The notes beneath the pieces were generated by a model. That model was not told the origin of the DNA. It was given only the letters and a program-made list of their open reading frames with translations, and ran no database searches. The position numbers and the translations under genes are program-made. Positions 37,971-42,111 of a stretch of 42,111 bases of DNA are shown here, piece after piece; within the stretch, counting starts at the first letter, position 1, and every line of letters starts with the position of its first letter. This stretch comes from Candidatus Limnocylindrales bacterium. Lineage in GTDB: Bacteria; Chloroflexota; Limnocylindria; Limnocylindrales; CSP1-4. The stretch covers positions 1-42,111 of the forward strand of contig JBBQVJ010000003.1 of the NCBI GenBank assembly GCA_038211705.1. Direction: 5' to 3'.

Positions 37971-40595
37971 CTACTCGTGATGCGTCTGTACGACGGCCGT
38001 TCCGCCGCCATGGCCATGCCCGTTGCCGTGGCCATGGCCGTTGCCGGGCACGCCGGTCACGGTCGGCGGCAGCATCGGCAGCATCGGCAGCATCCGTGTC
38101 GTGTCGATGAGGCGGCCCTCGGCGGCGGCTCGGGACGCCCAATCGCGCTCGCGCCGGATGTAGGTGACCTCGGTCTCGCGATCGATCGCGGCGATCGCCA
38201 TCAGGTCGATCATCGGCTCGTCGCGGCTGGTGTGCGAGAGCTCGATGTCGGCGCCGTCGCGGAGCGCGTCGTAGGGGCAGGCATCGACGCAGATGCCGCA
38301 CAGGATGCAGCGGCTCTCGTCGACCTCGTACTTCTGGAGGACGCGCGGCTTGGGCATCAGCGCGCCGGTCGGACAGGTCTCGGCGCAGCGACCGCAGGAC
38401 ACGCAGGGCGTGTCGTTGAGGATCATATCGAGTGGCGTCGTGACCAGCGTATCGAAGCCGATCCGCATGAAGTCGTAGCAGGCGGCGCCGACGACCTCCG
38501 CGCAGACCTGGGCGCACCGCCCACAGTCGATGCAGCGTGACGGCTCGCGGAGGATGAAGGCATGCGAGTCGTCGCGGATGTAGTCGTGGTTGACGCCGGT
38601 GAACCGGTTCTCGGTGACGCTCCGGAAGCCCGCGCCCTGGTGGTTTCCCATCTCGAGGGTCGGCAGCGTCGTCCCGTATTCGATGCCCAGGCGACGCAGG
38701 TCGCAGAAGCCGATCGCCTCGCAGGTGCACTGGAGGCAGCGGGTCGATTCGGCGACCGCGTCCTCGCGGGTATAGGGCAGCTCGTACTCGATGTACGAGT
38801 GGTTGCGCTCCTCGGCCTCGAGCGCCGACATCCGGTAGCGCGGCGTCTTGGCCTCACTGGTGAAGGGCACGATGGACAGGAACTCGGGCTGTGGCTCGGC
38901 CAGCGTCTGGCGGGTCCGGATGCCGGCCAGGTCCATGCCCTTGAGGAAGGCATCGACCGCGTAGGCCGCCCGCCGGCCCTCGGCGATCGCCTGGACCACG
39001 GTCGCGGCGCCGACCCGCACATCGCCCGTCCCGAAGACACCGGGTCGGCCGGTCTCGAAGGTGACCGCGTCGGCCTTGAGCCGGTTCTGCTTGGTCGCCT
39101 CGACGCCATCCGAGCCCGGGCCGATCCAGGTCAGGTCCGGGCCCTGGCCGATGGCCAGCAGGACGCGGTCGCAGGGGATCGTGAATTCCGTGCCGGGCGC
39201 CGGTTCCGGGCGGCGCCGACCCGAGGCATCTGGCGCACCGGGCGCCATCCGGATGAACTCGACGCCGGTGACCTTGCCATTCTTGTCGGTGATGACCCGG
39301 ACCGGACCGGCCTGGAAGATGGCCGTGACGCCTTCCTCGATCGCCTCGTGGACCTCGTTCGCGGCCGGCATGTCCTTCATGTCCCGGCGGTAGACGAGGG
39401 TCACTTCCCTGGCGCCCTGGCGGATCGAGGTCCGCGAGCAGTCCATCGAGGTGAAGCCGCCACCGATGACCACGACCCGCTTGCCGGCATGGTTCGGGTA
39501 GGGCAGACCGAGGGTCGCGGTTCGCAGGTACTCGAGGCCGTCGAGGACTTCCTCGGCATCCTCGCCCGGGATGCCCAGCTTGTTCGTGTCGTAGCAGCCG
39601 ATCGCCACGACCACCGAGTCGAAGCCCTGGTAGGTCAGGTCGTCGAGCGTGAAGTCCGTGCCGAGCCCGGCGTTGCAGACGATCTTGCCGCCCAACCGGG
39701 TCACCGATTCGTACTCGGCCTCGAGGACCTCGACCTTGGGCAGGCGGTACTGCGGGATGCCGTAGCGGAGCATCCCGCCGGGCGACGGGTCGCGCTCGAA
39801 GACGGTCACGTCGTGACCGGCCAGCAGCAGGTAGAAGGCGGCGGCCATCCCGGCCGGCCCCGAACCGATCACGGCGGCCCGACGGCCCGACGGCGCCTGG
39901 CGCTCGTAGGGCAGCGGCGGGTCCTGGCCGTCGTCGAGCATCGCCTTGAGGACCTGGTCGCCGGCGTAGCGGTGGCTGTCGCGGATGGCGATGGCCTCGT
40001 CGACCTCGTCGCGGCGGCAGTGCTCCTCGCACGGCGCCGGGCAGACACGACCCAGCACGGAGGGGAACGGGATCGTGCGCTTGAAGATGCGGGTGCTCTC
40101 ACGCCAGTCGGCCTCGGCGTTGGCCTTGAGGAAGCCCGGGATGTCGATATGGCTCGGGCACTTGTTCTGGCAGGGCGGCAGGCAGTAGGCGTTGTGGTCG
40201 GAGAAGATCAGCTCCAGGTTGGTCCGGCGCAGGCGGCGCAGCTCCTCGGTCTGGGTCTGGACCTTCATCTCCGGCTCGCAGGCGCGCGAGCAGGAGATCG
40301 GCGGGTGCTCCTCGCCCTCGACCTCCACCACGCACATCCGACAGGCGCCAAAGCCCGGCAGCTTGGGCTCGTAGCACAGGGTCGGGATCTCGATCCCGTT
40401 ATCGCGGCAGACCTCGAGGATCGTCTGGCCCTCAAAGCCCTCGACGACGCGGCCGTCGACCTCGATCCGGATGCGCGTCGACGACTGCGGCCGTTGCGGC
40501 GACTGCGTGTCGAGCAGGCGCTCGGCCAGCGATCGCCCGAGCGATTCGGGCTCGATCGCGGGGCGGCTCTCGGGGCGTGTGATCAGGTCAGCCAT
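37971..40595 (-). CDS. Fusion of NuoG-like [2Fe-2S], GltD/SudA-like FAD/NADPH oxidoreductase, [4Fe-4S] ferredoxin motifs and a NuoI-like C-terminus
   Basis: IPTLC..GACRMCVVE..SC; PCQNKCP; LGRVCPAPCEEHC; IGSGPAG; GGMLRYGIPQYRLP; IGGGFTSMD..YRR; CLQCTC; CIDCGRC; CVSCGRCAETCP; KYEVDESRCILCGICVDACPYDAL. ATG 40595 after AAGG. Confidence 0.9.
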   Translation of the reverse strand: MADLITRPESRPAIEPESLGRSLAERLLDTQSPQRPQSSTRIRIEVDGRVVEGFEGQTILEVCRDNGIEIPTLCYEPKLPGFGACRMCVVEVEGEEHPPISCSRACEPEMKVQTQTEELRRLRRTNLELIFSDHNAYCLPPCQNKCPSHIDIPGFLKANAEADWRESTRIFKRTIPFPSVLGRVCPAPCEEHCRRDEVDEAIAIRDSHRYAGDQVLKAMLDDGQDPPLPYERQAPSGRRAAVIGSGPAGMAAAFYLLLAGHDVTVFERDPSPGGMLRYGIPQYRLPKVEVLEAEYESVTRLGGKIVCNAGLGTDFTLDDLTYQGFDSVVVAIGCYDTNKLGIPGEDAEEVLDGLEYLRTATLGLPYPNHAGKRVVVIGGGFTSMDCSRTSIRQGAREVTLVYRRDMKDMPAANEVHEAIEEGVTAIFQAGPVRVITDKNGKVTGVEFIRMAPGAPDASGRRRPEPAPGTEFTIPCDRVLLAIGQGPDLTWIGPGSDGVEATKQNRLKADAVTFETGRPGVFGTGDVRVGAATVVQAIAEGRRAAYAVDAFLKGMDLAGIRTRQTLAEPQPEFLSIVPFTSEAKTPRYRMSALEAEERNHSYIEYELPYTREDAVAESTRCLQCTCEAIGFCDLRRLGIEYGTTLPTLEMGNHQGAGFRSVTENRFTGVNHDYIRDDSHAFILREPSRCIDCGRCAQVCAEVVGAACYDFMRIGFDTLVTTPLDMILNDTPCVSCGRCAETCPTGALMPKPRVLQKYEVDESRCILCGICVDACPYDALRDGADIELSHTSRDEPMIDLMAIAAIDRETEVTYIRRERDWASRAAAEGRLIDTTRMLPMLPMLPPTVTGVPGNGHGHGNGHGHGGGTAVVQTHHE

Positions 40596-40605
40596 GGTCG
40601 CCTTG

Positions 40606-41928: not shown

Positions 41929-41932
41929 GGGG

Positions 41933-42111
41933 TCACGCCTGGGCCGTCGGCTTGCGGGTGCGCCTGGGCGCGCCGGCCAGGGCGGCGTCGAAAGCGGCCA
42001 GGTAGGTCGTCTCGGACGGGCGTTCGCGATCCACCGCGGCGGCCTGCGCGGTCGCGCTCGCGGGCTCGAAGCGGAGATGGCTGTAGTAGGTGGCGGTGCC
42101 GTAGATCATGG
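41933..42111 (-). CDS. nuoE: 3' end of a NuoE-like gene lacking the C-terminal [2Fe-2S] domain (5' end outside window)
   Basis: Manual translation ..MIYGTATYYSHLRFEPASATAQAAAVDRERPSETTYLAAFDAALAGAPRRTRKPTAQA*. IYGTATYYS matches the NuoE VYGVATFY motif. Stop lies 4 nt before the nuoF ATG. Confidence 0.7.
   Translation of the reverse strand, partial: MIYGTATYYSHLRFEPASATAQAAAVDRERPSETTYLAAFDAALAGAPRRTRKPTAQA

Follow-up and report, generated by a model that had tools for sequence, protein, structure and literature searches.

A complex I operon of Limnocylindria with a predicted Nfn-type input module encoded inside a split nuoI

The window analysed here is one complete contig of 42,111 bases (C3; GenBank JBBQVJ010000003.1) from a metagenome-assembled genome (MAG) of a Candidatus Limnocylindrales bacterium, and it carries the downstream part of a nuo operon for respiratory complex I. 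The operon almost certainly encodes a complex I that has an Nfn-type module and a NuoI split over two polypeptides. The head of this complex is probably a trimmed module of the NfnABC/StnABC type (Bfu family) encoded inside split nuoI, and the whole would act as a proton-pumping NADPH:menaquinone oxidoreductase. NADPH is, on balance, the expected main electron donor, to judge from the motifs of the large fusion protein described below. The MAG comprises 2.1 Mb in 190 contigs, is 66% complete, and has a G+C content of about 70%.

All genes of the finding are on the minus strand. Within the window they are ordered as the tail of a NuoE-like gene, a NuoF-like gene (F'), a large fusion gene, and nuoJKLMN. 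The genes are tightly spaced, with 4 nt between the stop codon of the NuoE-like gene and the ATG of F', and 10 nt between the stop codon of F' and the ATG of the fusion. No separate nuoG or nuoI was found between F' and nuoJ. This order had been proposed from the letters alone (the sequence-only reading), and both the open reading frames and the Pfam matches agree with it. The NuoE-like gene begins with a part of NuoI and is designated I'E'. Residues of the fusion are numbered in the 896-residue frame that opens at the GTG at 40661. The features are as follows.

41933 to 42109, minus strand: last 58 codons and stop codon of I'E'; the remainder is on contig C41 (C41:103-786).
40606 to 41928, minus strand: F', a NuoF/NfnB-like flavoprotein core of 440 residues (Pfam Complex1_51K and NADH_4Fe-4S).
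37971 to 40595, minus strand: the fusion, 874 residues from the ATG at 40595, NfnA/StnC-like and ending in the NuoI C-half.
40248 to 40478, minus strand: [2Fe-2S] domain of the fusion, residues 62-138, of the NuoG-N1b/NfnA type (Pfam Fer2_4, E 3e-20).
38937 to 40184, minus strand: GltD/NfnB-type domain, residues 160-575 (Pfam Fer4_20 and Pyr_redox_2; alignment to NfnA/StnC).
38703 to 38738, minus strand: CxxCxC...C motif, residues 642-653, a further [4Fe-4S] site as in NfnA/StnC (alignment).
38358 to 38555, minus strand: dicluster ferredoxin domain, residues 703-768 (Pfam Fer4_Nqo3; alignment to 9bov_A and 8oh5_C).
38208 to 38348, minus strand: NuoI C-half, residues 772-818, with the second CxxCxxCxxxCP motif (C785-C795) and the NuoI C-terminal segment (TIGR01971).
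37974 to 38084, minus strand: variable C-terminal tail of the fusion, rich in Gly and His (translation; weak conservation in the alignment).
37368 to 37958, minus strand: nuoJ (Pfam Oxidored_q3).
37054 to 37371, minus strand: nuoK (Pfam Oxidored_q2).
35084 to 37057, minus strand: nuoL (Pfam Proton_antipo_M and Proton_antipo_N).
33432 to 35081, minus strand: nuoM (Pfam Proton_antipo_M).
31918 to 33435, minus strand: nuoN (Pfam Proton_antipo_M).

The final 281 bases of the window (41831-42111) overlap bases 1-281 of contig C41 with 16 mismatches (94.3% identity), and the assembly break inside the operon is probably due to strain variation. Profile matches show that C41 supplies nuoA, B, C, D, and H together with the start of the NuoE-like gene. 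The operon is thus composed of nuoA-B-C-D-H-(NuoI N-half::NuoE N-domain)-F'-(NfnA-like [2Fe-2S], GltD, and cluster domains::NuoI C-half)-J-K-L-M-N, and the entire series from nuoA to nuoN is located on a single contig in three relatives. All core subunits of the membrane and quinone modules (NuoA, B, C, D, H, J, K, L, M, and N) have a Pfam match. As identified by eye, NuoB contains a CC...C...CP pattern, and NuoD contains HPSTHG and YLHRG motifs, which are characteristic of these subunits.

The body of the fusion resembles the large subunits of soluble Nfn and Stn enzymes. A Pfam scan places Fer2_4 at residues 62-138, Fer4_20 at 160-239, Pyr_redox_2 at 262-562, a Fer4_Nqo3-like domain at 703-768, and Fer4 motifs up to residue 801. 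The best NCBIfam model is PRK12814, annotated as "putative NADPH-dependent glutamate synthase small subunit", and the NuoG model TIGR01973 reaches 89.6 bits against a cut-off of 470, covering only the N-terminal [2Fe-2S] part. In a search of all solved structures, residues 64-795 of the fusion align with residues 4-699 of 9bov_A (E 1.7e-160) and residues 62-797 with residues 2-701 of 8oh5_C (E 1.3e-140), and the archaeal NfnA 9n5u_A is the third of the best matches. The collinearity with NfnA/StnC extends residue by residue over about 730 residues and comprises the [2Fe-2S] domain, two GltD clusters, the flavin adenine dinucleotide (FAD) motif, GGGxT...YRR, the CxxCxC...C cluster, and the dicluster domain, which contains motif A (C710-C720) and motif B (C753-C763). 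The GltD-type domain has two N-terminal [4Fe-4S] sites, a FAD site with the motif GSGPAG, and an NADPH-type site with the motif GGGFT...YRR. The alignment stops at residue 699 of 1178 in 9bov_A and at residue 701 of 1172 in 8oh5_C, and the Fdh-like domain has no counterpart in the fusion. Beyond the dicluster domain, NfnA and StnC enter the Fdh-like domain, whereas the fusion runs into a third motif, C (C785-C795), and a NuoI-type C-terminus. The fusion is a predicted NfnA/StnC-like subunit in which the C-half of NuoI replaces the Fdh-like end.

The cofactor motifs of the fusion are strictly conserved. In 11 fusion sequences, with identities down to 44%, the [2Fe-2S] cysteines C96, C107, C110, and C124 are invariant, as are G266, G268, G271, G400-402, Y424, R425, and R426, the cysteines of the GltD clusters, all four cysteines of CxxCxC...C, and those of motifs A, B, and C. 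The FAD and NADPH-type Rossmann motifs and the iron-sulfur chain, which the sequence-only reading had described as intact, are borne out by these residues and by the Pfam matches. The first GltD cluster, A7, is ligated by a lysine in NfnA (PMC11829005). The residue aligned with it in the fusion is His230 (approximately 39972-39974), which is invariant in 11 of 11 complex-I-linked fusions, and a Stn-like homologue from Chloroflexota retains the lysine. The fusion homologues are 865-890 residues long. With a mean identity of 87.5% over 44 loci and a ratio of nonsynonymous to synonymous substitution rates (dN/dS) of 0.145, the fusion is the most conserved of seven subunits; the mean identities of NuoH, NuoD, and F' are 84.8%, 83.5%, and 74.8%, respectively. 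One soil metagenome contig has a 9-base deletion at 38067, in the Gly/His-rich tail.

The I'E' gene, which encodes 227-253 residues, joins the N-half of NuoI to the helical N-domain of NuoE. Of the 121 positions of the NuoI model TIGR01971, positions 1-62 are covered by the first part of the protein with 50 bits, and this part contains a single CxxCxxCxxxCP motif. The second part covers positions 2-64 of the 145 in PF01257, which correspond to the helical N-domain, and has NfnC and StnA (9bov_C and 8oh5_A) as its best matches among solved structures. The full open reading frame contains zero cysteines after the NuoI motif, indicating that the [2Fe-2S] domain of NuoE (N1a) is absent, as had been read from the sequence alone. 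In the sister families f2 and f4, the E' part retains a thioredoxin-like fold and lacks the second cysteine pair.

The complementary half of NuoI is at the end of the fusion, where positions 71-116 of TIGR01971 match bases 38208-38345 with 41 bits (E 1.6e-10). This C-terminus is the only other good NuoI match in the genome besides I'E', and no single-polypeptide NuoI with two CxxCxxCxxxCP motifs was found in the genome at the TIGR01971 cut-off of 113 bits. Four relatives from Limnocylindria, with genomes 92-95% complete, have the same two halves and no NuoI match over the cut-off, which speaks against the complete canonical set that would have refuted the sequence-only reading. The NuoI-like segment noted earlier at the end of the fusion is specifically the C-half of a split NuoI, the N-half of which is fused to NuoE on C41. 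NuoI is thus encoded in two halves that complement each other, with E', F', and the NfnA-like body between them, and the cassette inside the split nuoI is, by its sequence matches, of the NfnABC/StnABC type.

The four cysteines of the I' motif are invariant in the 11-sequence alignment, and the alignments of the fusion and I' together extend down to 27-44% identity. The four invariant four-cysteine motifs A, B, C, and I' would fit two dicluster folds. Since motifs A and B align with a solved dicluster domain, motif C is left to pair with I' in trans. The proposed pairing of motif C with the I' motif to rebuild NuoI has indirect support, part of which is that the two halves cover complementary stretches of the NuoI model. 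In a complex prediction, I' residues 1-125 with fusion residues 695-870 scored 0.43, compared with 0.01 for the best control, a pass that may stem from the model's memory because NuoI structures have already been solved. The runs had contact agreement of at least 70% and a partner predicted local distance difference test (pLDDT) value of at least 60. Of 80 solved complexes, 58 reached the mark applied, as did 2 of 110 mismatched pairs; among those reaching it at 0.60 or under were only 7 of those 80 solved complexes, plus both mismatches.

In Limnocylindria, this architecture is the complex I of the organism and not an additional one. Each of the four near-complete genomes has a single nuoH, and in two of them (G025, 93% complete, and G049, 95% complete) F' is the only Complex1_51K gene. 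Two genomes of family f3 have one nuoB, within the I'E'-F'-fusion cluster, and one nuoH elsewhere. A closed genome of family f25 has three loci: a canonical 14-gene operon, a nuoA-C-D-H cluster without B and I, and a nuoB-I'E'-F'-fusion cluster. Because the nuoA-C-D-H cluster lacks exactly B and I, the third locus can be read as completing a second complex I.

Another cluster of the MAG was considered as a true NADH head. Contig C55 (locus L012) encodes, at 7250-11910 on the minus strand, a NuoE::NuoF fusion of 627 residues with an intact [2Fe-2S] domain, together with a Fer2_4/Fer4/Molybdop_Fe4S4 protein similar to the N-terminal part of NuoG and a molybdopterin oxidoreductase. The cluster looks like a separate soluble NAD-linked module of the formate-dehydrogenase type. 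Counterparts are present in genomes G010 and G024 and absent from G025 and G049, which have no second Complex1_51K gene, and C55 was rejected as a general answer.

The gene cluster is widespread among relatives of the MAG. The fusion was found in all 41 genomes of one set (40 relatives and G000) and in 145 of 151 sampled genomes of the class, or 138 of 144 when seven unpublished genomes are left out; the six class genomes without a match are 76-91% complete. In the phylum, 73 of 301 sampled genomes have a match, a count that includes soluble Stn-like homologues. More than 120 cluster representatives are 83-94% identical to the fusion, and those that are named belong to Chloroflexota or "Candidatus Limnocylindrales" MAGs. 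A search of cluster representatives with I'E' yielded 157 clusters at E<=1e-10, and a pattern scan of species-representative genomes yielded at least 586 relatives of I'E' among 599 matching stretches. The locus search with the I'E' alignment covers the closest 80 loci, with 77-87% identity. Long matches of I'E' in which it is joined to pieces of F' or NuoH (P0146, P0129, P0186, and P0147) were set aside as partial domain matches that look like gene-calling merges.

In all 28 complex-I-linked loci inspected, I'E', F', and the fusion are in the same order and are located beside nuoB or within a nuo operon. Families f1, f2, and f4 have the full operon. The single f20 locus begins with nuoA-B-C-D-H, and nuoJ-N were not seen within the stretch examined. 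The context is nuoB-nuoD-I'E'-F'-fusion in f3 and nuoB-I'E'-F'-fusion in f10, f25, f29, and f47. Motif C is present in 28 of 29 complex-I-linked fusions, the exception having a broken frame, and in none of three Stn-like proteins, which have neither I'E' nor nuoB beside them. In a quick midpoint-rooted tree, from which L140 was left out because of its broken frame, 29 complex-I-linked fusions separate from the 3 Stn-like ones with full support. The f3 fusions, which are from the same class as the organism of the window, group with the four-gene cluster type of other classes and not with f1, f2, and f4, which hints at an old split or a transfer of the module. Some f25 genomes contain a second fusion copy in tandem, directly after the first (L139/G376 6050-10900; G209:C38 36565-41382).

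These observations bear on the possibility that the operon is an artefact, namely a chimeric contig, a gene-calling fusion, or a decaying operon. The MAG is incomplete and fragmented, a contig break is located within the operon, and nuoH contains a stop codon. Nevertheless, the fused genes are contiguous and in the same order in many independent assemblies, which rules out the misassembly at the junction that the sequence-only reading had named as a possible refutation. All cluster cysteines are invariant, the dN/dS values of every gene tested are 0.1-0.35, and metagenome and metatranscriptome contigs that are at least 90% alike cover 30 of 30 bins of 37000-42111. The probability of an artefact is negligible. 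Contigs from two soil metatranscriptome runs (X15 and X16) are at least 90% alike over all 30 bins. The two runs give near-identical figures and are probably one data set, and contig cover cannot show transcription of the operon in this organism but only hint at it.

F' is more similar to the B subunits of the soluble enzymes than to NuoF of complex I. On F', the NuoF model TIGR01959 scores 341.8 bits, below its cut-off of 558.65. Among solved structures, F' is closest to NfnB, HydB, and StnB, at 352-336 bits (352 bits for 9bov_B); the highest score for a NuoF of complex I is 265 bits. F' aligns only to the core of the B subunit, residues 100-526 of 584, and lacks the N-terminal and C-terminal cluster and Zn domains of B subunits; no ferredoxin domain was found on it in the Pfam scan. 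With I'E', F', and the fusion all matching NfnABC/StnABC better than complex I subunits, and with nuo genes adjacent throughout, the earlier proposal of an NfnABC-like graft onto complex I is strongly supported.

The sequence-only reading had described the cofactor motifs of F' as eroded and the E and F proteins as a retained scaffold, and both claims hold in part. The N3 motif of F' is C-x2-T-x2-C with a distal cysteine, in which the second cysteine is replaced by threonine. Among close relatives, 77 of 79 have Thr or Ser at this position, and all 6 f4 loci have Ala. The acidic ADE motif is replaced in every complex-I-linked F' examined. On the other side, the glycine loop LRGRGGAG of the flavin mononucleotide (FMN) site, GEET, and RPPxP are retained across sequences that are 30-45% identical, and all four N3 cysteines are present in f3, f10, f20, f25, f29, and f47. 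The median dN/dS of F' against 45 relatives is 0.27, similar to the 0.26 of nuoL and nuoM and below the 0.35 of nuoJ. These relatives share recent ancestry and are not independent samples, and dS is about 0.5-0.6. F' is modified yet under purifying selection, and "degenerate", as it had been called, is an overstatement. The idea that a nearby histidine stands in for the lost N3 cysteine (CDHE, 72 of 79 close relatives) was discarded, because f4 has alanine at the cysteine position and no conserved histidine (CRLE, CHLE, CGLE).

The retained motifs of F' are compatible with a complex that has two ports, in which one cluster junction would receive electrons both from NADH, oxidised at the FMN of F', and from NADPH, oxidised at the FAD of the GltD domain. 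Such an enzyme would be an NAD(P)H:menaquinone oxidoreductase, and a non-bifurcating exchange between the two nucleotide pools would be possible. In addition to the conserved FMN site, the purifying selection, and the complete N3 motifs of six families, a structural precedent exists in the solved Nfn enzyme, where the [2Fe-2S]/A2 junction joins the flavin of the B subunit to the GltD arm (PMC11829005). However, N3 has only three cysteines in the lineage of the window, and the acidic motif that is replaced in every complex-I-linked F' belongs to the NADH site. The residue after GGAG is Arg, Val, Lys, or Met in f10, f25, f29, and f47. In complex I structures this position is occupied by an aromatic residue that stacks on the adenine. 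F' is also among the least conserved of the seven subunits and is the least conserved peripheral one. The two-port enzyme is unlikely, and the catalytic weight seems to be on the GltD fusion, with F' constrained but altered.

The preferred reading, an NADPH:menaquinone oxidoreductase, implies the following path of electrons. NADPH would deliver a hydride to the FAD of the GltD domain. From there electrons would travel via both [4Fe-4S] clusters of GltD and the CxxCxC...C cluster and reach the dicluster domain with motifs A and B. In NfnA of Caldicellulosiruptor saccharolyticus (Csac), the route of the electrons is FAD-A7-A6-A3-A2-A1-B1. A side branch, A2-A4-A5, leads into the Fdh-like domain and ends there (PMC11829005), and clusters C1/C2 of Stn were described as a dead end of this kind (PMC10482914). 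In solved NfnA/StnC the dead-end branch starts at the second cluster of the dicluster domain. This branch would be made productive here by the exchange of the Fdh-like domain for the NuoI C-half. The C-half on the fusion and the N-half on I'E' would together rebuild both NuoI clusters (N6a/N6b), which would pass electrons to N2 on NuoB and on to menaquinone, with proton pumping by NuoH/A/J/K/L/M/N. The NuoE N-domain may tether F' to the NuoI N-half, and F' may be mainly structural or at most a minor NAD(H) port. Since the C subunit has lost its [2Fe-2S] and the B subunit its end domains, the published bifurcation site is gone, and no bifurcation is expected. Cellular NADPH has a potential of about -370 mV and NADH of -280 mV (quoted in PMC10482914). 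NADPH is thus the more reduced donor and would provide more driving force toward menaquinone, and an analogous argument was made by Schut et al. for the predicted Nuo-Bfu (PMC9304861).

Several observations weigh against this reading. BLASTP aligns motifs B and C of the fusion with both canonical NuoI motifs (34% identity, 21% gaps, E 9e-8). In this alternative topology, B and C alone would form a NuoI-like domain and the I' motif would be left over. In AlphaFold2 models computed from 11-row alignments and with no clusters, residues 583-896 of the fusion have pLDDT values below 50, too low for a usable model, and residues 60-580 mostly 70-95; in I'E' alone, the NuoE N-domain has values of 70-95 and residues 23-115 are below 50. 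The retained FMN loop and GEET, three of four N3 cysteines, and the purifying selection on F' are compatible with an NADH port. The nuoH gene of the MAG contains an in-frame TAA at C41 1908-1910 (minus strand), just past the first transmembrane helix. In relatives this codon is TAC in 59, TAT in 4, TTC in 5, and a stop in 0 of the 68 loci, among 83, that hold the motif. The TAA is either a true nonsense mutation or a consensus error, and the complex may accordingly be broken in this genome or the assembly may be wrong. The preference for NADPH is inferred from the identity of the motifs with those of NADPH-using enzymes, and some members of the GltD family use NADH. Finally, in an aerobe whose reducing equivalents are generated mostly as NADH, this NADH would have to be consumed elsewhere. 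The survey of such routes covered PntB of the proton-translocating NAD(P) transhydrogenase. PntB is present in 5 of 5 genomes (G010, G024, G025, G049, and G044), one of which is a streamlined genome of 1.2 Mb, and the NADH and NADPH pools can thus be linked.

The demand for NADH oxidation is also the argument for a GltD domain that has switched to NADH, which would make the enzyme an ordinary NADH:menaquinone complex I with a different flavoprotein. An NADH oxidase is required in these organisms, no NuoF-type gene other than F' is present in two streamlined genomes, and a few substitutions can alter the nucleotide preference of GltD-like proteins. However, GGGxT...YRR is unchanged in all 11 sequences and is of the same type as in the NADPH-binding NfnA and StnC, which makes the switch very improbable.

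Another way to use the same components is to run them in reverse, with the proton-motive force driving electrons from menaquinol to NADP+ to supply NADPH for biosynthesis. Complex I is reversible, Nfn/Stn enzymes serve the production of NADPH (PMC11829005, PMC10482914), and other Chloroflexota have the module in a second complex I beside a canonical 14-gene one, which suggests a specialised role. In Limnocylindria, however, the complex is the sole complex I, and the genomes carry PntB, the usual proton-driven route to NADPH. The transfer from menaquinol, at about -74 mV (PMC9304861), to NADP+ would moreover be a steep climb. Operation mainly in this direction is improbable.

Complex I with an alternative input module is a known concept. 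Known inputs are few, namely NADH via NuoEFG, F420H2 via FpoF, ferredoxin in NDH-1, and flavodoxin in Campylobacter. The Nfn-type head together with the split NuoI is what differs here. Compared with canonical complex I of Thermus thermophilus (PDB 2FUG/4HEA), NuoA, B, C, D, H, and J-N are present and ordered. However, NuoE lacks N1a, NuoF scores below the equivalog cut-off with only three cysteines at N3, another protein takes the place of NuoG, and NuoI is split over two polypeptides. The input genes follow nuoH, inside nuoI, and are not located between nuoD and nuoH.

The closest characterized relatives are NfnABC of C. saccharolyticus (PDB 9BOV/9BP5) and StnABC of Sporomusa ovata (PDB 8OH5/8OH9), soluble, NADPH-dependent, bifurcating enzymes of the Bfu family; the identities of these structure entries are as given in PMC11829005 and PMC10482914. 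The three genes are in the same order, encoding a NuoE-like, a NuoF-like, and a NuoG-like protein with an inserted GltD domain, and the large subunits are collinear over about 700 residues. The differences are that the large subunit of the window has the NuoI C-half and no Fdh-like C-terminal domain, that its B subunit lacks the N- and C-terminal cluster and Zn domains, that its C subunit lacks the [2Fe-2S] site and is fused to the NuoI N-half, and that the position of the A7 lysine ligand of NfnA is an invariant histidine. In contrast to the soluble enzymes, the module is encoded in a nuo operon and is presumably membrane-bound and non-bifurcating.

Two previously proposed systems share individual traits with the operon. 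In the predicted Nuo-Bfu of Schut et al. 2022, as in the reading given here, NuoEFG is replaced by a Bfu module that is encoded amid the nuo genes and delivers electrons to menaquinone (PMC9304861). Its hosts are Deferribacteres/Proteobacteria and Planctomycetes/Nitrospirae, including Geobacter-type bacteria; it has a full BfuB, for which the search of that study required a ferredoxin domain, and confurcation of NADH and ferredoxin was proposed (PMC9304861). The position of the cluster in the window fits the definition of Nuo-Bfu, but F', without a ferredoxin domain, is not a full BfuB. The part of PMC9304861 that sets out Nuo-Bfu mentions neither a GltD/Nfn-type A subunit nor a split NuoI. 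Mbx-like operons of Thermotoga and proteobacteria have a GltD-type NAD(P) flavoprotein at the NuoI position of a complex-I-related module (Degli Esposti 2015, PMC4758237). They are of the Mrp/hydrogenase type and were proposed to reduce NAD(P)+ with ferredoxin (PMC4758237). Unlike them, the window carries a genuine nuo operon, which encodes relics of NuoE/F, a subunit of the NfnA type, and NuoI in two halves.

Gene sets of Chloroflexi with 13 of 14 subunits, or with a second cluster without nuoG, have been reported (Spero et al. 2015, PMC4453560; Tang et al. 2011, PMC3150298). In the relevant passages of these reports NuoG is treated as missing or as replaced by an unknown gene, for which the architecture described here is a candidate replacement, and the Nfn-type head may explain Chloroflexi nuo sets without NuoG. 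A link to the second nuo cluster of Chloroflexus was rejected, since that cluster is of the 2M type and has a different architecture (PMC8004040). Full-text literature searches, the coverage of which leaves out most subscription journals and supplements, found no published complex I that has an Nfn-type head or whose NuoI is split, in agreement with the sequence-only reading, which knew of no such description.

The surroundings of the operon contain several other genes. A Methyltransf_28 gene adjoins nuo genes in two distant lineages: it is upstream of nuoA on C41 (5272-6645, minus strand) and downstream of the fusion in an f3 genome (L045 7862-9217, minus strand). This is the family of the complex I assembly factor NDUFAF7/MidA. 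The contig of the window starts with dnaA, dnaN, and a recF-like gene (379-4617, plus strand), so that some 30-40 kb separate the nuo operon from the probable origin of replication. The region 8649-17276 encodes large membrane proteins whose domains resemble protein-O-mannosyltransferases (TMEM260-like, PMT, PMT_4TMC), and a Kelch/PD40 repeat protein of 806 residues is encoded at 24298-26718.

In its broadest form, the interpretation is that the class Limnocylindria respires through an undescribed, proton-pumping NADPH:menaquinone complex I. It would have arisen by insertion of an Nfn/Stn cassette into the nuoI of an 11-subunit complex, the two resulting halves of NuoI would reassemble in trans, and the dead-end branch of the soluble enzymes would serve as the wire to quinone. 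Together with nuoB, the cassette would equip a second complex I in other lineages, and it would be the "NuoG" whose absence from Chloroflexi genomes was noted in 2011-2015. The chances that all of this holds are about evenly balanced. If it is true, an NADPH-using input head would be a new entry point into respiratory chains and would give menaquinone-dependent bacteria more driving force per electron pair. NuoI would be a core iron-sulfur subunit that works as two fused halves, and the operon would be a clear example of how evolution exchanges modules between membrane pumps and soluble bifurcating enzymes, in a widespread lineage of Chloroflexota that are abundant in soil and freshwater.

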